Assembly: GCA_937930265.1 (NCBI GenBank)
Contig: CALGLI010000230.1
Coordinates: forward strand, 1-43,764
Source of the DNA: an uncultured Veillonella sp.
GTDB taxonomy: Bacteria > Bacillota > Negativicutes > Veillonellales > Veillonellaceae
Direction: 5' to 3'
DNA: 43,764 nucleotides
The notes beneath the pieces were generated by a model. That model was not told where the DNA came from and searched no databases. It worked only from the letters and a program-made list of their open reading frames with translations. Below are positions 166 to 43,521 of this stretch, piece after piece (position 1 is the stretch's first letter; every line of letters begins with the position of its first letter). Both the position numbers and the translations under genes were made by a program.

Positions 166-681
166 TTAATCCGCCATTTCTTCAATTTTATAAGATAGCA
201 TCAAATCGTCGATAAGGCCTCTTACACCTTCCTCGTTATATTCCTTCGGATCAGGAACGACTTCCGCTATCCAGTCCGCCGTCCAAACGTAATCTACACC
301 TTCGGGCCATACGAAATCAGAAAATTCTTCTTCCATGTCGCCATCAACCCATGCGTCCTTGTCCCATTTACCGATGCATGGAGATTGGCGCATTTCATGC
401 TCGTATATCATGTCCCATGCTTCCTTGTAAGTTTCTGCGGTTCCCATAAACCAAGGTTTTTTACTTTCTGTACTGTACACTTTTAACATTTTAGGCTCCT
501 CCCCATATAATCGTTCCATGCCCTGGCGGGATACTAGCCAATTCCGCCCAGACTTTCTAGCTTCATCATCAGTAAATTGTTTAATTGCATATCTTTTTAA
601 GCAACATTGCTTTATAGAATCGGCAGGTACCTTCCATCGTTTCCCAGCCTCTTGTGTAGTCATTACATCATCTAATTTCAT
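166..681 (-). CDS. Helix-turn-helix DNA-binding protein with acidic C-terminal domain
   Basis: N-terminal VMTTQEAGKRWKVPADSIKQCC...ARKSGRNWLVSRQGMERLYG is an excisionase/MerR-like HTH. Start overlaps the upstream stop (TAATG). Confidence 0.75.
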   Translation of the reverse strand: MKLDDVMTTQEAGKRWKVPADSIKQCCLKRYAIKQFTDDEARKSGRNWLVSRQGMERLYGEEPKMLKVYSTESKKPWFMGTAETYKEAWDMIYEHEMRQSPCIGKWDKDAWVDGDMEEEFSDFVWPEGVDYVWTADWIAEVVPDPKEYNEEGVRGLIDDLMLSYKIEEMAD

Positions 682-2112: not shown

Positions 2113-2444
2113 TTTTTATCCTCCTGTTCTAATTTATCTGGGATACCATTATTATCCCTATCAACGCTAAGCCATAATAATCCTGTAAGCGATACAATCA
2201 CGCCCGGAGCACCAAACATATGGTCAATTAAGAATGCTCCCATTGTTATGATCTTATCGTGTGCACTAGATATTTCGCCTAAATAAAATGAAATCGCATA
2301 AGCCATGGTTGCCAATATAATTGGTGTTAGCATGATAAATATGAGTATTCTGGCTCCCCATACTAAAGTAGGGTGGACTTTCGCCACCCTAACAGATTGA
2401 TATATATTTCTTACAGAATTAATGAGCTTTGGCGGTATGTTCAT
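2109..2444 (-). CDS. Putative holin
   Basis: Two hydrophobic segments and charged C-terminus DRDNNGIPDKLE; directly upstream of the endolysin. Confidence 0.65.
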   Translation of the reverse strand: MNIPPKLINSVRNIYQSVRVAKVHPTLVWGARILIFIMLTPIILATMAYAISFYLGEISSAHDKIITMGAFLIDHMFGAPGVIVSLTGLLWLSVDRDNNGIPDKLEQEDKK

Positions 2445-2748
2445 GAAACTCCCCCCTTAACTCATCTAATCGTGTTTCCATTCCGTTAACCCTTGTTGCT
2501 AGCTTCACATGCTCCGTGAAACCCTTTACACGCTCTTCCCTTGATAGCTTGATTTCATTCTTCAGGTCATTAAGAGTCTCAGTTAAAACCCCCATTTTTT
2601 CTTGGAAAACTAGAGTGTCTTGCAAATGTTGCAAATCACGCTTTTCCAATAGAGGAAGGACTAATACTTTATAAATAAAGCCTGCCACTATACTAACAAT
2701 GGTTAATGTTGTTAGAATATCATCTAACTGAAATTGCCATGTCCACAT
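2419..2748 (-). CDS. Single-TM coiled-coil lysis-module protein (holin/antiholin-like)
   Basis: N-terminal TM then coiled coil; located in the lysis cassette. Confidence 0.55.
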   Translation of the reverse strand: MWTWQFQLDDILTTLTIVSIVAGFIYKVLVLPLLEKRDLQHLQDTLVFQEKMGVLTETLNDLKNEIKLSREERVKGFTEHVKLATRVNGMETRLDELRGEFHEHTAKAH

Positions 2749-2910
2749 TTAATCACCTTGGCTTTCGTTGTTTTTACCATTTTCTAAATCAATCAATTCA
2801 TTATGGATACAGCCCTCTGTAGGGCAAGTTCCGTCATCGTTTAGCACTTCCCAGCAGTATTTACAGAATTCCATAACAGGAACTTTACTTTCTCCGATAA
2901 ATTTAGGCAT
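2749..2910 (-). CDS. Small Cys-rich protein (53 aa, MPKFIGESKVPVMEFCKYCWEVLNDDGTCPTEGCIHNE...)
   Basis: SD AAGGGGGTG; fills the gap between neighbours exactly; CxxC...CxxxxC pattern; below the track cutoff. Confidence 0.75.
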   Translation of the reverse strand: MPKFIGESKVPVMEFCKYCWEVLNDDGTCPTEGCIHNELIDLENGKNNESQGD

Positions 2911-2911
2911 A

Positions 2912-3301
2912 TTATCGCACCCCCTTAATACGTGTTACCATTTCGTCATTTAATTTAATATATTGGGCACTAATGGCTGTAGTAGGTTTCCCCATCAACA
3001 GCAATCTGCGTTGAGCTTCTTCGAGTACTTTAAATCGAGGTTCGTATTCTGCTTTAATAGCATTAATTTTATCTTCTTTTGTTGGAACATATTCAGCTAC
3101 AGGAATATCAACAAATTCACCATTTACATATACTTTACCGCTTATGAATTGTGATTGCATTTCACTATCACCTGTTAATATGTTAGCAGTCGGATATGCT
3201 TGTCTTGCCAATTTTTCTGTTTCTTCTAAAGTGTCCGCATGAACACCAACTACATAAGATGTTTGGCGAACGCCTTTTTCATCTAATACGAATACATACA
3301 T
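2912..3301 (-). CDS. Hypothetical protein, probable tail fibre assembly/chaperone
   Basis: Lies downstream of the tail fibre; C-terminal helical segment KINAIKAEYE typical of fibre-associated proteins. Confidence 0.55.
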   Translation of the reverse strand: MYVFVLDEKGVRQTSYVVGVHADTLEETEKLARQAYPTANILTGDSEMQSQFISGKVYVNGEFVDIPVAEYVPTKEDKINAIKAEYEPRFKVLEEAQRRLLLMGKPTTAISAQYIKLNDEMVTRIKGVR

Positions 3302-3325
3302 ATTATGGTCCTTTCTGAGGTTATT

Positions 3326-4231
3326 ATGAAATTAATTGAGAAATTAAAAGGCGCCCATGAGCGCCCCTATGTTGCATATAAAATTATTGGTTATTATTCC
3401 TCTTATCAAGAGGCTAAGGAGGCATTATGCAATGTTCATACATTAGATGATGTGTATCAATCATGGTTAGAGTTGCATTCATTAAATGTTTCACTACACA
3501 CCATGAAAGGGTATGAATGTGCCTATCATCATGTATCATCAATATCTCACCGCCCTATCAACGAAATCACATATATGGAGTTGCAAAATATAATATCTAA
3601 TATGCTAAAGAGCGGACTCTCTTATTCATCATGTAAGAAAGTTCGCTCTTTACTCAATCAACTATATTCATTTGCAATTATTAATGGCTGGTGCTCAAAG
3701 TCATACAGTCAATATTTGAATATTGGCCACAATATTCCAGTTCGTCCACGTAAGGTGTTTACTACGAATCAAATCAACCGCCTTTGGAATATCAATGCGG
3801 AATTGCCTTTGATTCTTTTGTATACTGGCCTACGTGCCTCAGAGTTAATAAATTTAAAATCAACCGACATCAATCGCAAACAGCGGTATTTGAAAGTTAC
3901 TTCCAGTAAGACGAAAGCAGGCATCCGCATCATTCCTATTCATCATCGAATATGGCCATTTATTGAATCTCGATTATCTAACAAGTGGATCATAGATGAA
4001 CGAAATTATGTGTCCCTCTCAAAAGCCTTTAAATTAGCCATGGAATCCATTAATACTAAACATACTCCCCACGATTGCCGTCATTCATTCGCTACTAGAT
4101 TAGATGATGTAAGTGCCAACTACAATGCTACACGATTATTGCTCGGTCATGCATCATCTAATGTTACAGATGGTGTATATACTCATAAATCACTTAGGCA
4201 ATTACGCAAGGCAATCGAAATGCTTAAATGA
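3326..4231 (+). CDS. Tyrosine recombinase (shufflon invertase)
   Basis: YTGLRASEL, SKTKAG, HDCRHSF, LLGH, VY catalytic motifs. SD GAGGT before ATG 3326; its stop abuts the first inversion site. Confidence 0.92.
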   Translation: MKLIEKLKGAHERPYVAYKIIGYYSSYQEAKEALCNVHTLDDVYQSWLELHSLNVSLHTMKGYECAYHHVSSISHRPINEITYMELQNIISNMLKSGLSYSSCKKVRSLLNQLYSFAIINGWCSKSYSQYLNIGHNIPVRPRKVFTTNQINRLWNINAELPLILLYTGLRASELINLKSTDINRKQRYLKVTSSKTKAGIRIIPIHHRIWPFIESRLSNKWIIDERNYVSLSKAFKLAMESINTKHTPHDCRHSFATRLDDVSANYNATRLLLGHASSNVTDGVYTHKSLRQLRKAIEMLK

Positions 4232-4243
4232 CCAAGGGGGAAA
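4232..4243 (+). repeat. Shufflon recombination site 1 (CCAAGGGGGAAA)
   Basis: Identical 12-mer at 4464-4475 (+) and 4996-5007 (-); encodes QGG. Confidence 0.9.
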
Positions 4244-4460
4244 ATTTGTCCCTGAAATTGCATCTATAACATTTCCTATTCGTTTTAACGAAGTACTAGC
4301 AGTACTTCCTATGATGCTAGATGAGCCAACTCCATGGCATGAGATGATGATTAGACCAAAGGCCATCACGGCGAGCACGTTTAAAATGGTAAGCGGTAGC
4401 AATAACACTAACTATCCTAAGTCTCGTAATAATGGTTGTTGGATTGCTGTTGGTATTTAA
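4233..4460 (+). other. Silent alternative tail-fibre C-terminal cassette A (QGGKFVPEIASITFPIRF...CWIAVGI)
   Basis: Start-less ORF beginning at the site, with FPIxF and terminal W-x-A-x-G motifs shared with the expressed fibre tip. Confidence 0.88.
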
Positions 4461-4463
4461 TCA

Positions 4464-4475
4464 CCAAGGGGGAAA
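4464..4475 (+). repeat. Shufflon recombination site 2 (CCAAGGGGGAAA)
   Basis: Identical 12-mer. Confidence 0.9.
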
Positions 4476-4746
4476 ACAAAAGGCTGGAGAGCAAAAGCAA
4501 TCAGATATTAACAATTTAGAAGCCACAACAAATAAAGTTATATTTCCTATATCATTTACAAACAGCCATCTATTCCATACATTTGGGATTATTGCTAGTG
4601 ATGCATCAGTGTTTTGGGGAAACTCTGGAGCAAGTGTAATTAGCAGAAGAATATCTAGTACTGATATGCGATATGAAGTACATTCTAGTTATCAAACAAT
4701 GTTAAAAGCAGACTCAATCATTGAATGGTGTATTGTGGGAATTTAA
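4465..4746 (+). other. Silent alternative tail-fibre C-terminal cassette B (QGGKQKAGE...VIFPISF...EWCIVGI)
   Basis: Same architecture as cassette A; its stop overlaps the stop of the expressed fibre (TTAA 4743-4746). Confidence 0.88.
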
Positions 4747-5756
4747 ACGCCTAAAGCAATATATCGCATTTTGATTTGTTCTATAGCATTACTATTCTCA
4801 CTGATAACCGCTGCAAATCCAGTTGATGTAATCTGACTATCACTAAATCCAACTCGTGATAAATGTCTTAATTCTACTTTATTAATTGCATATGGATGTA
4901 CATATAATGGCTTAGATTTAAACGCTATTGGGAAAGTAAACTGCTCTTGCCTTTGTTGACTTCCTATATCGTAATAGGCCTGTGTATCGCTATCATTTCC
5001 CCCTTGGATAATTAAATTCCCAAACAGCTTACCAAGGCAGATATACCAAGCATTTACATTACTGAAATCATATCTGATTCCAAGGCCTGTTGCTTTCTCA
5101 CTTTCCAAGGCATTGACTACATCGGTTGCGTTTTTGATGTTTAGTCCGCTCAAAATGGTTTTCACCAGTTGTAAAGTAGGTGCTTTTGCTAATGAATCGC
5201 TATCATCTACGCTAGTAATCATGTTATTTACTTGTTGAATAATAGCATTGAATCGACTGTCATGTGCATCGGGATCTGTATTATGTGCTTCCAGATCATG
5301 CACAGAGGCTACCCCATTATCGGAAATGATTGCTTGCACATTTTCCGCATTGCCAATTACGGTAGTGATAGTAAACGTGTAGCTATCCATCGGCGTATTC
5401 TTATCAGGAATGTAGTCAACATAGTTGCCGCCGTTTGTGTAAGAGAATAGCACCTCTTGCCCGTTTTCACCTGCTTTGGCCATGAGCCCTATTTCTCGTG
5501 CATAAAAACCGGCTTCAAGGTTTTTATTCGAGAGTAGCCCTTTCACCATGAATTGTCCATCACCTGTTTTAACACTTTTAGTAATCGCCAATTCCAGGCG
5601 CTTATCAGTCAACGCCGTAGCGCGTGGAATTGATGCCGGCATGTCGCCTGTACCGATAACGATTTTGGTAAAAATCAAAGCCTGCTTACTCGCATTAGCT
5701 TCCGCAATAGTATTTGTCCCCGCCATTGTAGTAATGACGGCAGGATATTTCGCCAT
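4743..5756 (-). CDS. Tail fibre protein with invertible C-terminal receptor-binding tip
   Basis: P2 gpH-like N-terminus (FTKIVIGTG, GFYAREIGLMA); C-terminal LIIQGG...FTFPIAF...YIALGV; follows tail protein I. Confidence 0.9.
   Translation of the reverse strand: MAKYPAVITTMAGTNTIAEANASKQALIFTKIVIGTGDMPASIPRATALTDKRLELAITKSVKTGDGQFMVKGLLSNKNLEAGFYAREIGLMAKAGENGQEVLFSYTNGGNYVDYIPDKNTPMDSYTFTITTVIGNAENVQAIISDNGVASVHDLEAHNTDPDAHDSRFNAIIQQVNNMITSVDDSDSLAKAPTLQLVKTILSGLNIKNATDVVNALESEKATGLGIRYDFSNVNAWYICLGKLFGNLIIQGGNDSDTQAYYDIGSQQRQEQFTFPIAFKSKPLYVHPYAINKVELRHLSRVGFSDSQITSTGFAAVISENSNAIEQIKMRYIALGV
4996..5007 (-). repeat. Shufflon recombination site 3 (expression site, inverted)
   Basis: TTTCCCCCTTGG is the reverse complement of sites 1 and 2, in frame at IIQGG of the fibre gene. 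Confidence 0.9.
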
Positions 5757-5765
5757 GTATACCTC

Positions 5766-6410
5766 CTATATATGAATAAATTGGTGAACGGTAATTACGC
5801 CACCGACATAAAGCTGTTGCGTTTGTGGGCCTGTCGCGATTTTTAAACTTGGTTCAGCTACGGCGCTACCTGCAGCTGTTGCAATACCACCGACATACAC
5901 GCCGCCTGAATTAATAGCGTGCACATACTCAATACCATCTAGCCAGGACCTTTTATTCTTGACGAATTCTAATATACGGAGCACGCGCTCTCGTATATTC
6001 GGTGTCATCATATAACCGGACATCTGGAGTTTGAAATGGTAAGGCTTCCCGTCCTCGTAGCCCCAGTTCTCCACAACTTCGCAGTCTGAATACAGTTCGC
6101 CGATAGCTTCCTCAACTAATCCAACTGTGCCCTTTCTTCGATGCCAAGCGATAGAACTCAAAATTAATTTAATCTTTTGTTCTCTAGCTACAGCTTCATC
6201 GTAGAAGTCAACGTGTAAATGCCAGGCTAACTCATCTAGTATTGGCGTGCTTAACTCATTAAGATGCGACAAGATAGTTAGTCTATCCACGAACGGCATC
6301 AACGCCATAAGTCGCAACGTAACCACTTCAGCTAAGGCTTGAACATTAGCATCATTAGCAATCGAGCTCGGTAGCGTATCCTTTAATTTGAATTTGTAGA
6401 GATCATTCAT
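5766..6410 (-). CDS. Phage tail protein I (P2 gpI-like baseplate wedge)
   Basis: LDELAWHLHVDFYD, HRRKGT, ENWGYEDGKPYHFK motifs. Confidence 0.9.
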   Translation of the reverse strand: MNDLYKFKLKDTLPSSIANDANVQALAEVVTLRLMALMPFVDRLTILSHLNELSTPILDELAWHLHVDFYDEAVAREQKIKLILSSIAWHRRKGTVGLVEEAIGELYSDCEVVENWGYEDGKPYHFKLQMSGYMMTPNIRERVLRILEFVKNKRSWLDGIEYVHAINSGGVYVGGIATAAGSAVAEPSLKIATGPQTQQLYVGGVITVHQFIHI

Positions 6411-7536
6411 GCTCTACACCCCCATATGTGATAGTCTTACCGGAACACTGCGCCAATTCCACTTGGTAGCCATCTTCCTTCTTGCCGTCTTTCACAACGG
6501 TAAATACAGGGGATGTTACGCTAACACGTTTAGCCCCAGCTTCCATTACACGACGAATCAATTCAGATGGAATAATGTCGCGGCCCACTTTTCCGGATTG
6601 CCATTTAATATAATCCGTAACGGCCGCATCGACACGACTTTTAATTATATCCGCATAATACGAATTATCCGAATCAACGTAGTACTGAATATCGATGCTG
6701 TAATTCTTAGCGGTAGGTGCCTTTACTGACACATTATCGGTAAGTGGCCGCACTTTCTTATCGGAGAGCGTAGTTTCCACTAATTTAAGAATTTCTTCCC
6801 CTGCAACTTCGCCTGACACGAGGCCAGGATATACAACTACATCCCCAGGTTTAGGCGATACCACTTTCACAGAGCTAATAAGGGCCGATGCTTTTTTTGT
6901 AAAAAATTCATAAGCCCCTTCCGCACCAGCACATGAGAAGCTTTCAGGAGCTTCCCTGATACGTTCACGGAACGCATCGTCCGTCTCCGTATCGGCACCA
7001 CCTTCAGAGATTGTAATATTGGTTACACTTGCAATATAGGGAATCGGATCCACAAGCGTGGTAATCGACCCTACTGGGTAGCCGTTCCCTTTGGCAGAGG
7101 CTTCCGTACAAACGGCTTTTACTTGAACCATTGTTTCATTAGCCGATAAATAATAAGGCTCGGTTGTTGCAAAAAACACATTATCCCCCGCTGTGAAACG
7201 AGTACTTTTAGGAATCGCTATTCCTTCTGGTCTTGCCATCGATGCGGTTAGCTTCATAGTAGTGACTGCGCCCGTAGCTTGTAAGCGTTCCACGCCTAAC
7301 GCAATGCCGATATGGTCTAAGTTATTTCCCCTAGCATAGGCCAGAAGATTCTGCTTGCCCGTATCGTTGATGCGGTTTAACAATAAAATCACAATATTAG
7401 TAATCGTTAATAGAAATAAGCGAATAGGGTCCGCCGGTGCTAACTTTCGCCCAGTAACAGAGGTGTAGAGGGCGAATATTTCCTTTTCAACGGCTTCTTT
7501 ATCCGCCGTGACAAAGTTGATTTCAGGTAAATTCAT
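6403..7536 (-). CDS. Baseplate J/gp47 family protein
   Basis: NLLAYARGNNLDHIG, GGADTETDDAFRERI, VRPLTDNVSV; likely start ATG 7536 (track 7551). Confidence 0.92.
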   Translation of the reverse strand: MNLPEINFVTADKEAVEKEIFALYTSVTGRKLAPADPIRLFLLTITNIVILLLNRINDTGKQNLLAYARGNNLDHIGIALGVERLQATGAVTTMKLTASMARPEGIAIPKSTRFTAGDNVFFATTEPYYLSANETMVQVKAVCTEASAKGNGYPVGSITTLVDPIPYIASVTNITISEGGADTETDDAFRERIREAPESFSCAGAEGAYEFFTKKASALISSVKVVSPKPGDVVVYPGLVSGEVAGEEILKLVETTLSDKKVRPLTDNVSVKAPTAKNYSIDIQYYVDSDNSYYADIIKSRVDAAVTDYIKWQSGKVGRDIIPSELIRRVMEAGAKRVSVTSPVFTVVKDGKKEDGYQVELAQCSGKTITYGGVEHE

Positions 7537-7538
7537 TA

Positions 7539-7739
7539 TTATCGCCTCCACGGTGGTAAATTAATAGTCGCCCTTATATCTACATCAGGGCATTTCAAAA
7601 TAAGGTTAGCGGGCAATATCACATATTGAGCGTACTCTTGATTGGCTTCTAGCAGCACGTTCATATAAGCTTCATTGCCATACACTTTAAATGCGATACC
7701 GTCCCACATATCGCCTTGGATGGTTCTATACTGTTTCAT
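7539..7739 (-). CDS. Tail protein X (LysM-like, P2 gpX)
   Basis: YRTIQGDMWDGIAFKVYG...LPPW. Confidence 0.9.
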   Translation of the reverse strand: MKQYRTIQGDMWDGIAFKVYGNEAYMNVLLEANQEYAQYVILPANLILKCPDVDIRATINLPPWRR

Positions 7740-8094
7740 AGCTACCTGCGCTTTCTAGCCATTCATCTTTGATTGCAATTGATACCTTAGGCAACAAATG
7801 CCCTTCTTCCGCATCAGTTGCTTCTGTACTTTCAAAGTCAACGGACACAACTCTACATCGTGGCTCATATTCAGTAATGGCCCGAATCACCTCTGCAGAT
7901 ATTCTGGCCATTGCTACCGGTAAAGGTAAATCAATGACAGTACCATCTATACCGAACCGCCTATCAAGTGGTACGGAAAATTGTGTTGTAGAAATAATAG
8001 TTCGCACATTTTGAATGATTTCTGTAAGAACATCCTTCGGCGCAAAATCAATGCCATCAAGACGAGCGCTCACATCAATTTGCATTTGTATCAC
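7726..8094 (-). CDS. Baseplate wedge GPW/gp25 family
   Basis: IIQNVRTIISTTQFSVPLDRRFG, AITEYEPR. Confidence 0.88.
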   Translation of the reverse strand: MIQMQIDVSARLDGIDFAPKDVLTEIIQNVRTIISTTQFSVPLDRRFGIDGTVIDLPLPVAMARISAEVIRAITEYEPRCRVVSVDFESTEATDAEEGHLLPKVSIAIKDEWLESAGSYETV

Positions 8095-8692
8095 CTCCCT
8101 GTTTAGGTGTGATTACAACTTTAGGAGTATCAGGCGCCTCCTTCAGCGTTACATTAATGGATGCGGACAATACATTACCTCGATTATCAATCGTATTCAT
8201 CGCTGCGCTTATACTGGTAATCAGTAATTTGTGCTCACTAAATGGCTTACCATTAATAATCAACTGTTCGGCTTGTCCTTCTCGACACATCTTGGCCACT
8301 TCTTCAATTTCTTTTAGAGGGTCAACGCCCAATAGCTTATTAAAGTTCATCGTAAAAGAAATATCATCCGCATCAGGTCCTAGGAATTCAAGTATCGGCT
8401 TTTGCCCTATGATTTCATGGGACGCTGTTCGGGCGTTGATATTCCGTGCCAATGCATCGAACGTACGCACTGTATGAGAAGATGCCACAAACACAATTTT
8501 TCCAAAGCTTCCTAATTGGCGTTGTGGTAAGAACCCGCCCAGGCCAAACTTATCCGCTAAATTAGATAAGCGAGAGTAAGCCACATCGCCTAATTGCGTA
8601 TTTTGTAAATTCTTTAAACCTTGTGAATTAAGGTTCTTCTTATAGTTGGCAGCAGTGCTGCCTAATTTACTAAATATTGATATGTTGCTCAC
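8075..8692 (-). CDS. Phage P2 GpU-like tail protein
   Basis: GSFGKIVF, HEIIGQKPILEFLGPD motifs. Confidence 0.85.
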   Translation of the reverse strand: MSNISIFSKLGSTAANYKKNLNSQGLKNLQNTQLGDVAYSRLSNLADKFGLGGFLPQRQLGSFGKIVFVASSHTVRTFDALARNINARTASHEIIGQKPILEFLGPDADDISFTMNFNKLLGVDPLKEIEEVAKMCREGQAEQLIINGKPFSEHKLLITSISAAMNTIDNRGNVLSASINVTLKEAPDTPKVVITPKQGGDTNAN

Positions 8693-8695
8693 CTC

Positions 8696-9181
8696 CTATC
8701 GATTCGGCGTTCCTGTGCTTCCGCCTCCAGGAACGACACCACCATGCGTGTGAGACACTAAACTAATTCCGTTGACTACTACATCCCCAGAAGGGGCGTT
8801 TATAGTTAAATTACCGGTGCAATTTATAACAAGACCTCCTCCATCCGCATCATATGAGACTGTTGATCCGTCTGCAAATGTAATGCCGTGAATATTTTGT
8901 CCATTAAAAGAGGGCTTATCTTTGGCATTGTAAGTAGTGCCTAAGATGTAGCCCTGGGACAAATTATTATTTTGAGGTAAAAATAAACACAATACCTGTT
9001 CGCCAACATCGGGCATCCAGTAGTGTTTATTACTTTGTGATCCGTGTGAAAGTACTTCGAGTGGATATGAGACTAAATCATCGCGGTCCGGAAATGTTAC
9101 TCTTGCTGTCATGGTAGAGGGGTCCGTACTAGATACGATTCCGTCACGAATTAAATTTTTTAACGCCACACTAATATCCAT
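8696..9181 (-). CDS. Baseplate assembly protein V (spike)
   Basis: ARVTFPD, WMPDVGEQVLCLF, C-terminal HTHGGV metal-binding tip. Confidence 0.92.
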   Translation of the reverse strand: MDISVALKNLIRDGIVSSTDPSTMTARVTFPDRDDLVSYPLEVLSHGSQSNKHYWMPDVGEQVLCLFLPQNNNLSQGYILGTTYNAKDKPSFNGQNIHGITFADGSTVSYDADGGGLVINCTGNLTINAPSGDVVVNGISLVSHTHGGVVPGGGSTGTPNR

Positions 9182-10241
9182 CTAAGCACCTCCTTATATC
9201 TAGGCTTTGTGTATATCCGCCCCCTACCTTATGGGAGCATTTGCTAATAATATACTTACCGTCAAATTTACCAAACCCTTTTAAATTGATTGTGGCTGAT
9301 GCTGCCAGCACGATATGGCCAAGCATAGCAACGGAACCAGTAATTTCATTCTTGTTCTTTTCGCGTAGCTTTTTCTTAGCCAAACGTTCCGCTTCCGCCT
9401 GTGTTTCACAGCTCTGGTTAACTTGTAGTATCTTGCCTTGCGTTTTGTGAGGGTCCTTAAACGTATACTCAATAGTACTCTTTTGCTTAGTGCTCTTGTG
9501 CTTCACGTGACAGCCCCAATAGATATCCTTCAACGAGGACTTTAGTGAGTAACTGCCTTGGTAAGGAATGATTTCCCCTAGCTCCTTAATTTGTTCTTCT
9601 GTAAGGTCTGTAGGCATTGGCCCCTTAATTAGCGTTGCGACTACTTTTTCTGTTTCAAATTTTGTTTCATCAAAAATAATCACTTGCTTGTCTGAAACCT
9701 TTAACGCTAGCCCATTATCTTTACAGACTTTCATCAAGAATTCTAAATCAGATTGGTCCGATTGCTCGACCCGATCTAAATTAATCGTCTCAGGTGTATC
9801 GTAAAACAATTCAAGGCCTGCACCTTTCGCTAGTTCCTCCGCAACAGATTTGAGCGTAGTCTTCTCCCATGACTTACTCTTTAATTCCCCTCTTAATTTG
9901 GATTCATCTGGAACACTAACAGCCCCTATGGTGACCTCGTGAGGTGGGTTTTTACAAGTAATTTCATCAATTTCAAACTGCCCGCATTTCATCTCTATCT
10001 CGTCTCCTGGTTCGTTCCAATTGTGAAACACGATTGATGCGGTTAGCTTAGCCCCCTTTTCAGGGAACCAATCGGACATCCAAAGCTCTTCTATATCATG
10101 TAAAGTGATTGATATATCGTCAGCTTCTCCGGACATGACATCGTTAAAGCTGAAATCCTTTAAATAAGGAACCAGGTCTTGTGTGATGTCCTTTTGGTCA
10201 TACTGCAGTTTGACAGTAACATAGCGCAAATTACTAGGCAT
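9171..10241 (-). CDS. Late control D / baseplate hub protein
   Basis: SGEADDISITL, GQFEIDEI, EQSDQSDLEFL, GFGKFDGKY. Confidence 0.9.
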   Translation of the reverse strand: MPSNLRYVTVKLQYDQKDITQDLVPYLKDFSFNDVMSGEADDISITLHDIEELWMSDWFPEKGAKLTASIVFHNWNEPGDEIEMKCGQFEIDEITCKNPPHEVTIGAVSVPDESKLRGELKSKSWEKTTLKSVAEELAKGAGLELFYDTPETINLDRVEQSDQSDLEFLMKVCKDNGLALKVSDKQVIIFDETKFETEKVVATLIKGPMPTDLTEEQIKELGEIIPYQGSYSLKSSLKDIYWGCHVKHKSTKQKSTIEYTFKDPHKTQGKILQVNQSCETQAEAERLAKKKLREKNKNEITGSVAMLGHIVLAASATINLKGFGKFDGKYIISKCSHKVGGGYTQSLDIRRCLDGY

Positions 10242-21313: not shown

Positions 21314-21715
21314 TCACGCATTAAAAAAGCGCCCATGTTGAGCGCTTAGACTTGTGCCATGCATAGATTGGATCATCATGCTTATTAAAGCCTGCGTTTC
21401 CACATCCGTGTGGCACGATATCTCCATATGTTTAATATCATGAGCCGATATATTTAGGCCTTGCCTATACTTATATAAAAATTCAGGCATTGCCTTTTCT
21501 ATTATCAAATATAAATAATAAGGGATTACGTTTCGTGGTTGAATCACTACATATTTAGCATCAACTTGTTGCGCGGTAGCTAAATACACCAATTCTCCTT
21601 TACTAGCAGATACTTGCAAGCAAATACAGCCCTGTGGATATATTTGATTCTTCTTAGGTCTCCCCAGTATATCCGCAACTTCCGTAATTTTAATTTTCTT
21701 GTAATTTTTTAACAT
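21314..21715 (-). CDS. Short type I R-M specificity (HsdS-like) subunit, single TRD
   Basis: YYLY...NISAHDIKHMEI...ETQALI resembles an HsdS half-repeat; coupled to the MTase. Confidence 0.7.
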   Translation of the reverse strand: MLKNYKKIKITEVADILGRPKKNQIYPQGCICLQVSASKGELVYLATAQQVDAKYVVIQPRNVIPYYLYLIIEKAMPEFLYKYRQGLNISAHDIKHMEISCHTDVETQALISMMIQSMHGTSLSAQHGRFFNA

Positions 21716-23022
21716 TACACAAACATCTTTTGAAGTAAATACTTTTTAACATCTTCTATTTTTTTTATCACAGCTTCTTGCTCCTCGACTGTAACAGCAC
21801 TTTCGGATGATATTAAAAACTCTGTAAATTCTTTTACAAATTCGTCATGCTCTTTCTGCGCGTCAGGATCGGTACAAACTAGTTGCTTTAACATTTCCGC
21901 AATTTCCAATCCTAAAGCACGACTTTCTCGATTAATTTCGTTAAGTTCTTTAGCAAGCTGTACCGCATCCGGTATTTCTTCCGGCTCAAAGCTGTCAATA
22001 TAGCGTGGAATATTCAGATTATAGTCATTGTCTAAAATAGTAGACATGCTAATGTTACTAGAATATCGCTCTATATCTGCCCTGTTCTTGTACGCTTTAA
22101 TTACTTTTTCCACCTGTTCGGCGGTCATTATATTTTTGTTTTTGTTCTTAACAAAATCTTTTTGCGCATCGATAAATAATACGTCTTTGTTAGCGCGATT
22201 TTTCTTAAATACCAATATGCATACAGGTATACTTGTATTTGTAAATAGATTAGAAGGTAGTCCTATTACCGCATCAAGTAAATTATCCTCAATCAGCTTA
22301 CGTCTTATATCGCCCTCTGCCTGTCCTCTGAAAAGCACACCGTGCGGCAGGATAAAGGCAGCTGTGCCAGAAGCATTTAACGAATAAAGTCCGTCGAGTA
22401 TAAAAGCAAAATCGGCTTTACTCTTTGGTGCCAACTTATAACCTTCAAAACGTGCATCCATTTGTGGAATCCAAGATTGGCTATACGGAGGATTACTAAT
22501 CACCGTATCATATTTTTTACTTCCTAGCATATCTACTTTAGATACTTGGCCAAAGCCAGATGCGGCGGATTCCACTTTATAGTACGCAAGCTCTTCACCA
22601 GTAAGCACGTTCTTCTCTACTACTTCCGCATCTATATTAGCTATTAGTAGATTGAGTAGCATAAAGGCTATCGCATTTTTTGAATACTCTTCAAGCCTTA
22701 GTGTCACGGTATTATCCGACTTAAATTTAGCCAAAGATAATCCGCCTATTCCAGCACATACATCGCGAACATCACCGCCGGAGGTAATACAGCCGATTAT
22801 ATCTAGCACGCATTGTGGCGTGTAATCTTGCATATAGTTTTTTCTATCTGCACTATGTTCTTCGAATTCAGCAAGTAAGGCCTCATACGAATAGTAAGGC
22901 TGTATCGACTTTAAAAGATCCGAACAGGTATTCGAATTTAGCAATACCTTTGTTAGAGCTGTAGGTATTTCGTGCATTTCACGAATATTTAGTTCTTCCA
23001 TAATCCTTTGTAGGATTGTCAT
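21715..23022 (-). CDS. N6-adenine DNA methyltransferase, type I HsdM-like
   Basis: Motif I DVCAGIGG, motif IV ISNPPYS, ILPHGVLFRG, YNLNIPRYID. Confidence 0.93.
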   Translation of the reverse strand: MTILQRIMEELNIREMHEIPTALTKVLLNSNTCSDLLKSIQPYYSYEALLAEFEEHSADRKNYMQDYTPQCVLDIIGCITSGGDVRDVCAGIGGLSLAKFKSDNTVTLRLEEYSKNAIAFMLLNLLIANIDAEVVEKNVLTGEELAYYKVESAASGFGQVSKVDMLGSKKYDTVISNPPYSQSWIPQMDARFEGYKLAPKSKADFAFILDGLYSLNASGTAAFILPHGVLFRGQAEGDIRRKLIEDNLLDAVIGLPSNLFTNTSIPVCILVFKKNRANKDVLFIDAQKDFVKNKNKNIMTAEQVEKVIKAYKNRADIERYSSNISMSTILDNDYNLNIPRYIDSFEPEEIPDAVQLAKELNEINRESRALGLEIAEMLKQLVCTDPDAQKEHDEFVKEFTEFLISSESAVTVEEQEAVIKKIEDVKKYLLQKMFV

Positions 23023-41333: not shown

Positions 41334-42308
41334 TTGAAAGAATTCAAAACAATAGACGAGCAAATTCAAATACTTCTTGATAGAAACCTTATCATTAATG
41401 ATGTTGATAAAGCGAAAGCATATCTATTGAGCCAAAACTATTATAATATTATAAACGGGTATGCTAACTTTTTTCCCAGAGACAATAATGATAACTATAC
41501 ATCGAATACCACATTTGATGAAATTGCAAAGCTTTACCGGTTTGAAAAAGAATTAAAACAAGAACTGTTGAATGCTATTCTTAGTGCTGAGACTCATTTA
41601 AAAGCATTATTTTCACATCGCTTTTCTGAGACCTACGCCGATAAGCCTTACCCATATTTAGATATTAATTGCTACGCTCCTACTAGGCGTTTAGAGAGTG
41701 TTGAGACTATATCTAAACTATCTAAAACGCTGATTAAGTATAACTGTAATTATCATAGAAACTCTAGTATTTATCACTACATAAATAGTTATCAAAAAGT
41801 CCCTATGTGGGTTTTATCTAGCTATATTGAGTTTGGCACATTTAGATATCTATTATCTAACACCACCATATCAGTACAAAATAAAGTAGCACGGGATTGT
41901 ATAAGCTTTATAACCGAACATATCAAGAACCCAGGGCAATTTACCCCCGCTACAATGATAAGCTTTGTAAAAAACATTCACAGCATCAGAAATGTTTGTG
42001 CGCATGGTAATCGCTTGATTGGGCATCTTTGTCCTTCAGATGATCGATATTGGGCGCCATTACACACTAAATATGGTATTACATCAAATACGCCTAGGAA
42101 CACCACTTATGCTGTGTTTCTTTCGTTACAATGCTTCTTAAGTCGCATTGAATACGCCACATTACATAACTCTGTATTGAAGTTAACAAAGAAATTAGCT
42201 CCAAAACTTAGTTCTATCCATATAAATGATATTTTATTAAAATTAGGATTTCCACAAGATTGGCATTTACACGCTACTAAAATCAATCCAGCGGCCCCTC
42301 TTACATAA
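41334..42308 (+). CDS. Abi_2 (AbiD/AbiF) family abortive-infection protein, HEPN RNase
   Basis: KTIDEQIQILLDRNL, NYYNIINGY, TTFDEIAKLYRFE, VPMWVL, R-x4-H motif IRNVCAH, C-terminal LGFPQDW. Confidence 0.9.
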   Translation: MKEFKTIDEQIQILLDRNLIINDVDKAKAYLLSQNYYNIINGYANFFPRDNNDNYTSNTTFDEIAKLYRFEKELKQELLNAILSAETHLKALFSHRFSETYADKPYPYLDINCYAPTRRLESVETISKLSKTLIKYNCNYHRNSSIYHYINSYQKVPMWVLSSYIEFGTFRYLLSNTTISVQNKVARDCISFITEHIKNPGQFTPATMISFVKNIHSIRNVCAHGNRLIGHLCPSDDRYWAPLHTKYGITSNTPRNTTYAVFLSLQCFLSRIEYATLHNSVLKLTKKLAPKLSSIHINDILLKLGFPQDWHLHATKINPAAPLT

Positions 42309-42435: not shown

Positions 42436-43521
42436 ATGGCCATGAAACGCGCCAATGGTACTGGCACCGTATATAAGATGAAACATAAGGCTCTACGCAA
42501 GCCATATCGAGCCGTGGTGACCCTTGGATATAACTCCGAGGGTAAACCCTTACGAAAATCCATAGGCACCTTTGCAACGCAAAAAGAAGCATATAATGCA
42601 TTATCAGCTTATGACGCAAACGCCCAACAATACGAAATCAAGGATACGACCTTTGGCCAATGTTGGGAATGGATGATTGAAGATAAGCTACGTAAAGGGG
42701 TTATCTTGGAAAAAGGCGGATATCTTTATAATAAAAAGAAGGTGGAGCACTTATTAAAAACCCCTATTAAAGATATAAGACTTGCCCATATGCAAGATGT
42801 TATTGACAGATATGCAGATAAGAGCCACACGACATTGGTACAGATAAAAACGGCTATGAAAGCAACTTTTGACGCTGCTATTAAAAATGATATAGTGGAT
42901 AAAAACTATGCTGCACTCGTCACTCTACCACAAAAGGTAAAGTCTGAAATTCATAAGCCATTCACCCCCGTCGAGATATTTCGCCTATGGGAACTAGCAG
43001 ATACCGATCGTGATGCTCGTGTGTTATTAGTGTACATATATACGGGAATGCGCCCAGGTGAAATACAAAGTATTAAATTGAAAGATGTTTATCTCAAGGA
43101 ACGCTATATGATAGGTGGTAGTAAAACTGCAGCGGGTAAAAATCGTATCATTCCTTTAGCGGATGCCATTTTGCCTATTATAAAAGAGTGGTATAAAATT
43201 AGCAGTTTTCAACGGAATGAGTATCTGCTCCCTAAAGACACCCCTAAACATTTATTAATCGCCATCCGTACCTATCTAAATAAGCATTTCCCAGGACACC
43301 TTCCACACGACGGGCGGCATACTTGTGCATCCTTATTAATTCACATTGGCATATCAGAAGCCACGACAAAAACGATACTAGGTCACCGGCATTCTGACGT
43401 AACGAATCAAGTATACATCCACAAAGACGTATCGGAGTTAGTAGAAGCTGTTAATAAATTGCCTACTAAAGATGCTCTTTTGAGCGACGACTATGTGTCT
43501 CTAACTTTTATGAAAGGGTGA
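42436..43521 (+). CDS. int: Prophage integrase (tyrosine recombinase)
   Basis: RANGTGTVYK arm-binding N-terminus; YTGMRPGE, HDGRHT, ILGH, VY; adjacent to att. Confidence 0.96.
   Translation: MAMKRANGTGTVYKMKHKALRKPYRAVVTLGYNSEGKPLRKSIGTFATQKEAYNALSAYDANAQQYEIKDTTFGQCWEWMIEDKLRKGVILEKGGYLYNKKKVEHLLKTPIKDIRLAHMQDVIDRYADKSHTTLVQIKTAMKATFDAAIKNDIVDKNYAALVTLPQKVKSEIHKPFTPVEIFRLWELADTDRDARVLLVYIYTGMRPGEIQSIKLKDVYLKERYMIGGSKTAAGKNRIIPLADAILPIIKEWYKISSFQRNEYLLPKDTPKHLLIAIRTYLNKHFPGHLPHDGRHTCASLLIHIGISEATTKTILGHRHSDVTNQVYIHKDVSELVEAVNKLPTKDALLSDDYVSLTFMKG

Follow-up and report, generated by a model that had tools for sequence, protein, structure and literature searches.

Can a temperate phage of Veillonella exchange the receptor-binding tip of its tail fibre by DNA inversion, and which enzyme would carry out the exchange? 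This question is raised by a locus in contig CALGLI010000230.1 (C230), the whole of which (43,764 bases, hereafter the window) was analysed, and in which three copies of a short asymmetric repeat lie between the end of a tyrosine recombinase gene and the middle of a tail fibre gene. The original prediction, which was made from the letters of the sequence, proposed an in-frame, multi-state swap of the fibre tip by inversion, driven by the adjacent dedicated recombinase, and this proposal is supported both by the anatomy of the locus and by natural rearrangements in its relatives. The locus is very probably a shufflon of the Rin type that acts on the tail fibre of a temperate myovirus of Veillonella; it is a real example, and probably an active one, of a kind of system already known. 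The basis of this reading is formed by the sites, the rarity of these sites, three homologous tips, a dedicated recombinase, its intact catalytic residues and core-exact permutations of junctions in relatives.

Putative recombination sites, fibre gene and silent cassettes

The 12-mer CCAAGGGGGAAA is present at the three positions given by the original prediction (Table 1), and these are its only copies in the window with one mismatch allowed. Dinucleotide-preserving shuffles contained a mean of 0.10 copies, and at least three copies were found in 0 of 100 shuffles. An 11-mer of the site is confined to the same three places in the whole assembly of 1,715,936 bases, and a 10-mer has one extra copy there. 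The match extends beyond the core to 19 of 21 nucleotides (nt) between sites 1 and 2 and to 17 of 20 nt between sites 1 and 3, with a spacing of 752 nt between sites 1 and 3 and of 520 nt between sites 2 and 3. A logo built from 78 unique contexts reads ttaatTa.C-CAAGGGGGAA, in which the G-rich part is invariant and the AT-rich part is weakly conserved. As in the Rin shufflon, a short asymmetric repeat heads each cassette, sits inside the constant gene and is rare elsewhere in the assembly. Site 1 abuts the stop codon of the recombinase, as had been noted from the sequence, and the core is kept there though it is non-coding.

Table 1. Features of the shufflon locus and related phage genes in the window (aa, amino acids; ORF, open reading frame)
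Feature	Position	Strand	Remarks
Excisionase-like gene	166-681		
Tyrosine recombinase (invertase candidate)	3326-4231	+	301 aa from ATG 3326; 308 aa from ATG 3305; TGA 4229-4231
Site 1, CCAAGGGGGAAA	4232-4243	+	directly after recombinase stop
Silent cassette A	4233-4457, stop 4458-4460	+	75 codons, QGGKFVPE...CWIAVGI; PF21882, E 3.8e-5
Site 2, CCAAGGGGGAAA	4464-4475	+	
Silent cassette B	4465-4743, stop 4744-4746	+	93 codons, QGGKQKAGEQ...EWCIVGI; PF21882, E 6.5e-3
Tail fibre ORF	4743-5756	-	337 aa
Expressed tip C	4743-5006	-	fibre residues 251-337 and stop; PF21882, E 2.6e-5 (full fibre)
Site 3, CCAAGGGGGAAA	4996-5007	-	in fibre codons I-Q-G-G; inverted relative to sites 1 and 2
Constant part of fibre	5007-5756	-	residues 1-250; PF12571 tail-collar fibre N-terminus
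gpI (P2 gpI-like, Tail_P2_I)	5766-6410	as fibre	upstream of fibre; Pfam
gpJ (Baseplate_J)	6403-7551	as fibre	upstream of fibre; Pfam
Integrase (second tyrosine recombinase)	42436-43521		361 aa; separate from shufflon recombinase

Regarding the fibre, the ORF matches the tail fibre family PHROG 7037 (E 6e-41), and site 3 lies in frame within the peptide ...LFGNLIIQGG..., where IIQGG corresponds to residues 249-253 of 337 and I-Q-G-G to residues 250-253. Each plus-strand copy of the site opens a start-less ORF: cassettes A and B read Q-G-G straight from the site and have no start codon of their own there, the nearest upstream starts being a GTG inside the recombinase gene for A and an ATG inside the end of A for B, with no others. 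The layout QGG...FPIxF...[WY]xxxG[IV] followed by a stop, which had been proposed for the fibre and both cassettes, is common to tips A, B and C. The cassettes are promoterless and encode alternative C-termini homologous to the expressed tip: all three tips match the Pfam family Gp53-like_C (PF21882), and the same family is matched by 31 of 43 diverse tips from relatives. The cassettes are bare tips of 66-103 aa and are very dissimilar to each other (12-30% identity). The stop codons of cassette B (TAA 4744-4746, plus strand) and of the fibre (TAA 4743-4745, minus strand) overlap as TTAA at 4743-4746, again as first described.

An AlphaFold2 model of tip C, calculated from an alignment of the 43 diverse tips, had a mean predicted local distance difference test (pLDDT) value of 80. 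Its best fold match was the C-terminus of the R1 pyocin fibre (E 4.8e-3, template modelling score 0.62), and further matches were snail H-type lectins and the gp53 fibre of AP22; these matches are weak but coherent with a carbohydrate-binding tip. A sequence search of the fibre against solved structures returned nothing useful, with an unrelated enzyme as the best hit (E 0.92).

The adjacent recombinase

The candidate invertase contains the tyrosine recombinase domain PF00589 (E 9e-19) and SAM-like core-binding domains, and matches PHROG 1, annotated as "integrase" (E 1e-49). Residues R170, K195, H249, R252, H275 and Y285 do not vary among seven relatives with identities as low as 45%; we assign them to the catalytic set on the basis of the standard motif. 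The nearest solved relatives are Tn1549 Int, XerC, XerD and XerA. As described for Rin, the enzyme has no large arm-binding domain, adjoins the array and is distinct from the integrase of the phage, with which it shares 30% identity. The assignment of the gene as the phage's integrase was considered and ruled out by the separate integrase gene at the far end of the contig. No resolvase-type family of serine recombinases was matched among the scanned ORFs (at least 90 aa, plus the lysis region), and a blastn search with window positions 3200-6400 gave no match among named phage genomes.

An enzyme of this class could also be employed otherwise, as a second integrase or in dimer resolution, while the tips would be exchanged independently of it, by general or illegitimate recombination between co-infecting phages at a conserved coding motif. 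The matches in NCBIfam, which are sub-threshold and Xer- or integron-integrase-like with no curated invertase family among them, would suit such a role, as would the nearest homologues in named phages (at most 35% identity), which are annotated as integrases. However, the phage already possesses an integrase and an excisionase-like gene, and a coding motif would not account for a core conserved as DNA where it is non-coding, behind the recombinase stop. The junctions in related loci and the linkage between recombinase and cassettes bear on the same point.

Rearrangements in related loci

The recombinase, the constant part of the fibre and the tips were mapped on 61 related loci (designated L), every site was read with its flanks, and the junctions were classified in 22 distinct IMG/VR contigs with the core. 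This analysis revealed that the left context, which is the fibre (Fib), the recombinase end (Rec) or a cassette end (cas), switches its partner exactly at C/CAAGGGGGA. Eight types of tip (A, C, D, E, G, H, J and K) are fused to the constant region in these 22 contigs; tips A, C, D, E and G are fused in some contigs and silent in others, and the recombinase-side site is followed by six different cassettes in relatives (A, B, C, F, G and I). Cassette A is fused to the constant region in L010/L057, L017 and L061 and in a contig from public run X1, and tip C is a silent cassette in L003, L005, L010, L011, L046 and L061. Cassette B follows the recombinase-side site in L003, and in L023 its left context is of the fibre type, which makes B the ninth fused type. 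The fibre of L004 carries tip G with a core ending in ...GGGGGAT. A comparison of cassette order and number in related prophages had been suggested as a check together with the original prediction, and its outcome is that the orders differ between relatives and are always joined at the core. An identity of 10-12 nt is too short for exchange of the RecA type, yet the junctions all lie there, at the same codons every time, which argues against an exchange that does not depend on the enzyme.

Several loci can be related to each other by defined inversions. L003 and L009 encode an identical recombinase protein, and their orders (Rec/B, cas/C, Fib/G versus Rec/G, cas/B, Fib/C) are two inversions apart; the rearrangement is recent, because contigs with an identical recombinase protein differ in order. 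In the contig from run X1 (43,549 nt, ~90-95% alike), the window positions 4232/5008 and 4475/4995 are joined on opposite strands, and its order, Rec/B(+) C(-) A(-)/Fib, equals that of the window after two inversions. Run X2 likewise yielded a single contig, from a relative that is less than 90% alike. Compared with window 4238/4232, its stretch from the recombinase to cassette A is longer by 440 nucleotides, which is room for one or two more cassettes. Among isolates, Veillonella sp. VA137 has an A-like tip fused and a KR(T/Q)E tip silent, and strain 3891 has the opposite arrangement.

The ends of the contigs also contain information. In 6 of the 22 contigs an end lies at most 55 nt from a site, and in one of them this holds for both ends, implying a circle opened at the shufflon; five further contigs end inside the cassette array. 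As a repeat of 10-12 nt alone would not break an assembly, contig ends at sites are indirect support for variation, within the sample, of the sequence that follows, and the recurrent contig breaks at the fibre gene are explained by the shufflon.

Relatives of the recombinase and their sites

A scan of a genome collection with the single recombinase as query returned nothing, and the same scan with an alignment (A1) as query returned 27 loci. Relatives of the recombinase occur in Veillonella spp., Megasphaera, Megamonas, Dialister, an Acidaminococcaceae bin and one Gallibacterium melopsittaci. Of 44 unique relatives, 35 have at least two copies of one core variant within 4.5 kilobases (kb) downstream, for 7 the flanks are not long enough for a judgement, and the other 2 lack all four core patterns; one of these two, L082, has a shorter repeat, ATCCAAGGG, in three copies. 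The largest arrays, with 10 sites each, belong to L039 and to L070 of Gallibacterium. Isolates or complete chromosomes with the shufflon architecture are Veillonella sp. VA137, VA139 and 3891, V. parvula UTDB1-3, Megasphaera hexanoica MH and Gallibacterium melopsittaci CCM 7538. The gene order ORF129-recombinase-cassettes-fibre-gpI-gpJ, in which ORF129 is a small ORF described below, is conserved in L071 (V. parvula) and L077 (V. seminalis), and is present with weaker matches in L070 (Gallibacterium). L078 (Megamonas), L082 (Dialister) and L086 (Megasphaera) retain the order recombinase-fibre-gpI-gpJ and gave no ORF129 match.

In the recombinase tree, the core variants fall into well-supported clades (support given as bootstrap/approximate likelihood-ratio test): CCAGT with 8 rows (100/99), CCAAT with 10 rows, one of them short (100/100), CCAAG with 18 rows, three of them short (96/87), and ACAGT with 7 rows, three of them short and one with none (100/100). 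That the core variants track the recombinase clades is consistent with co-divergence of enzyme and site, as read from these sequences. The recombinase-cassette linkage in 35 of the 44 relatives and the variation of the core with the recombinase clade also stand against recombination at a mere coding motif, so that tip exchange independent of the enzyme appears very improbable.

These recombinases form a family of considerable size, which has several site specificities and has not been described so far. A further, joint reading is that the family was recruited independently of Rin and consists of naturally orthogonal enzyme-site pairs with at least four core specificities, represented by CCAAGGGGGA, CCAATGGGGA, CCAGTGGGGA and ACAGTGGGGA; this reading is tentative, and somewhat more likely to fail than to hold. 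If it were true, each core specificity would drive arrays of 2-10 fibre tips in P2-type phages of Negativicutes, with one jump to Pasteurellaceae (Gallibacterium); two non-cross-reacting systems would coexist in one Veillonella cell (on the window contig and on contig C329), and inversion-only directionality would be achieved without an arm-binding domain.

Two of these loci deserve separate description. Contig C329 of the same genome (locus L097) carries a second fibre shufflon at ~3558-6719, whose recombinase is 46% identical to that of the window. Of the six CCAATGGGGA sites of this shufflon, the one inside the fibre gene is on the plus strand and the other five are on the minus strand; each of the five minus-strand sites opens a tip ORF of 70-90 aa reading QWG, which gives one fused tip and five silent ones. 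L070 of Gallibacterium melopsittaci CCM 7538 (6001-9760) belongs to a proteobacterial (Pasteurellaceae) prophage and encodes a recombinase 45% identical to that of the window; it has ten CCAAGGGGGA sites, and its fibre junction, ...KLFGNLIIQGG, is the same peptide as in the window. The sequence of this module suggests a transfer across phyla.

Probable activity of the proposed shufflon

Several observations weigh against an active shufflon of the kind proposed. The window's own assembly holds one arrangement only. Among public sequencing runs, eight contained part of the stretch and none contained half of its words. Of the four compared in detail, X1 and X2 were the runs with contigs, and X9 and X10, which consist of raw reads, had 0 reads of the locus, so that the evidence for both orientations comes from comparison between genomes. 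Two relatives have decayed: in L013 (4001-5024) the recombinase is truncated after residue ~118-125, where the final 52 codons of tip C follow, and L056 (4001-5462) has lost its silent cassettes, retains only the first 14 recombinase codons and has a fibre locked to tip D. With the recombinase gene lost in part (L013) or almost entirely (L056), both loci look, from their sequences, like naturally locked variants. Sites in direct repeat coexist (sites 1 and 2 of the window, and five in L057), between which deletion would have to be avoided. Fusion of tip B to the fibre was seen in L023 only, the fold matches of tip C do not reach E 0.001, and kinship by itself would lead core variants to cluster on the tree, so that this clustering is no proof of co-evolution. 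In addition, metagenome contigs can be strain chimeras, and the cassette order of a contig is less secure than its single junctions; judging from its sequence, L023 is probably such a chimera, assembled from two phages with cassettes in common.

The single arrangement, the lack of read evidence and the two decayed relatives would all be expected of a fossil shufflon, which was shuffled in the past, has no meaningful flip rate now and leaves the fibre in effect fixed with tip C. Such a state is improbable for the window, where the recombinase ORF is intact with all catalytic residues invariant, the three cores are identical over 12 nt, and each silent cassette has an open frame up to a stop codon and retains the family motifs; moreover, contigs with an identical recombinase protein and differing orders point to recent rearrangement. 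An assembly artefact, in which the array or its permutations would arise from mis-joined metagenome reads, could be suspected because the window comes from a metagenome bin of 77% completeness and L023 looks chimeric. This is the least probable explanation, since the same architecture is found in the isolate genomes and complete chromosomes of Veillonella, Megasphaera hexanoica MH and Gallibacterium melopsittaci CCM 7538, and each junction needs reads that span a core shorter than the usual assembly word.

Regarding L023 itself, two complete gpJ-gpI-fibre modules converge on one B/C cassette pair at 2275-7820, and no recombinase is present in the 23-kb record. A reciprocal exchange of tips between two fibres was considered for this record and rejected on account of the two complete converging modules and the missing recombinase.

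Proposed mechanism of tip switching

In the proposed Rin-type shufflon, the recombinase would recognise an asymmetric site of ~14-20 base pairs (bp), consisting of an AT-rich left part (ttaatTa.C) and an invariant G-rich right part (CAAGGGGGAA). Strand exchange would take place between the copy in fibre codons 250-253 and an inverted copy before a promoterless cassette, whereby the DNA in between would flip. A 520-bp flip between sites 2 and 3 would fuse fibre residues 1-250 to tip B, and a 752-bp flip between sites 1 and 3 would fuse the same residues to tip A. After the latter flip, site 2 would be direct to the fibre site and inverted to site 1, leading to further orders such as those in relatives. 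Only the fused tip would be translated, from the late baseplate operon. As the tips are predicted to be H-lectin-like beta-sandwiches of 75-93 aa, the switch most likely changes the surface carbohydrate bound by the phage, which is probably the lipopolysaccharide of the diderm host. Catalysis by this recombinase, a preference for inversion over deletion, the flip rate and a change of host range are what we infer for the system.

Comparison with known inversion systems

The original prediction named Gin, Cin and the R64 shufflon as known parallels. The combination of features is not new, as a phage shufflon in which a tyrosine invertase acts on a receptor-binding protein has been published as Rin (PMC6109161; PMC8778435). 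The Rin shufflon of Bifidobacterium breve and B. longum prophages is presented by its authors as the first phage-encoded invertase of the tyrosine family, and in their description these prophages carry an armless rin gene, a constant Rc gene and Rv cassettes with asymmetric rix sites of 11 bp between them, the integrase being encoded separately (Mavrich et al. 2018, PMC6109161). A later paper reports Rin from prophages of Eggerthella lenta as well (PMC8778435). A systematic survey of programmed inversion lists tail-fibre targets and, in its statement of scope, declares viruses unscanned (PMC9881135), and the R64 shufflon is mentioned in PMC2647930 and PMC9881135. No report of a shufflon in a phage of Veillonella or other Negativicutes was found in the searched collection of open-access PMC papers and bioRxiv preprints, of which the main texts were covered. 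The host group, the phage type and the tip fold are new, and the principle itself is already in print.

The likeness to Rin, as far as the published description of that locus goes, comprises an XerD-like tyrosine recombinase at one end, a constant N-terminal receptor-binding gene at the other end and several promoterless C-terminal cassettes in between (PMC6109161). In both systems the constant gene contains a short asymmetric repeat, of 11 bp in Rin and 10-12 bp in Veillonella, which also precedes each cassette; the integrase is a different enzyme encoded at another place in the prophage, and the tips are very dissimilar (6-30% identity in Rin versus 12-30% in the Veillonella system). The avoidance of deletion between direct sites is an open question in both, being left so in the relevant part of the Rin report (PMC6109161). 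The differences, on the same published basis, concern the host (Actinobacteria for Rin versus the diderm Firmicute Veillonella), the phage (a siphovirus versus a contractile-tailed phage with a P2-type baseplate), the tip fold (TP901-1-like versus Gp53-like_C or H-lectin-like) and the site (TTCCCTAACCC versus CCAAGGGGGA(A)). A further difference is size, with up to 10 sites in relatives of the Veillonella system. The likeness is one at the level of architecture. No Bifidobacterium phage occurs among the 32 phage records matched by the recombinase, a collection outside which those prophages may lie.

Gin of Mu, Cin of P1 and Min of p15B resemble the Veillonella system in the in-frame swap of the C-terminus of a myovirus tail fibre by inversion, with a change of host range, in so far as the Rin report outlines them (PMC6109161). 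Min is multi-site as well. All three are serine invertases, in contrast to the PF00589 tyrosine recombinase found here. The invertible segments of Gin, Cin and Min also carry a fibre-assembly gene, and the inversions depend on a Fis-bound enhancer.

The R64 shufflon (Rci, sfx, pilV) shares a tyrosine recombinase, many short asymmetric sites and a division into a conserved and a variable part, and its multiple inversions choose the C-terminus of an adhesin that recognises cell-surface structures. It differs in its target, which is the tip adhesin of a conjugative pilus on a plasmid rather than a phage fibre (PF12571/PF21882) in a baseplate operon. The site, CCAAGGGGGA(A) in Veillonella, probably differs from sfx as well, and the recombinase found here, of ~300 aa, matches no curated invertase family.

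Veillonella is a common oral and gut commensal whose phages have received little study. With a built-in set of 3-10 exchangeable tips, one prophage lineage could address several surface types, which bears on host-range prediction from metagenomes. The compact enzyme (~300 aa) and site (~14-20 bp), with several apparently distinct specificities, offer a tractable system. It could be used to ask how an armless tyrosine recombinase favours inversion over deletion, a question that the pertinent section of the Rin paper leaves open (PMC6109161).

The phage, its host and neighbouring genes

The window is the entire contig C230 of an assembly with 424 contigs. Elsewhere on the contig are genes for the tail sheath, tape measure, major head protein, portal, and large and small terminase subunits, together with replication genes, a repressor, an Abi-like gene and an endolysin. 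On this gene content, the window appears to be an essentially complete genome of a temperate myovirus, and IMG/VR relatives of the phage are 43-45 kb in size. The integrase, the excisionase-like gene and the repressor are at the contig end opposite to the shufflon, and the fibre gene closes a baseplate module composed of gpJ, gpI and the fibre.

The original prediction assigned the locus to a Firmicute myovirus. The contractile-tailed phage stands, and the host can be named more exactly: a host contig of 20 kb from the window's assembly is collinear with the Veillonella sp. VA137 genome (83-89% nucleotide identity), and the bin is assigned to Veillonella because of this collinearity. By these sequence comparisons, the host is Veillonella, a diderm Firmicute of the class Negativicutes; the membership of the phage contig in this bin is based on binning and on the relatives of the recombinase.

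Adjacent to the recombinase and divergent from it is ORF129 (2912-3301, minus strand; 129 aa, PHROG 32639), whose function is unknown. It adjoins the recombinase also in L071, L077, L013 and L056 (34-82% identity), and has a weaker match in L070 at a distance of 2.4 kb. Its position after the fibre gene would suggest a role in fibre assembly or lysis. A terminator-like GC-rich hairpin with a T-run is located on the minus strand at 3347-3368, inside the first codons of the recombinase gene; it is the sole terminator-like match in 2600-6000, the mean in shuffles being 2.0. This hairpin could be the end point for the leftward fibre transcript after its antisense passage through the recombinase gene.

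Other genes of the phage include a DNA methyltransferase gene at 21715-23022 (minus strand), between the portal and terminase genes, and an abortive-infection-like gene (PHROG 2158) at 41334-42308 (plus strand), which adjoins the integrase. Beside the endolysin, the ORFs 1109-1597 (162 aa) and 1117-1590 (157 aa), both on the minus strand, are nearly co-extensive in different frames. One of them matches PHROG 18860 and, by eye, has an N-terminal membrane helix; the other matches no family, and by eye its start resembles a signal peptide and its C-terminus is hydrophobic. The two may form a spanin-like pair.

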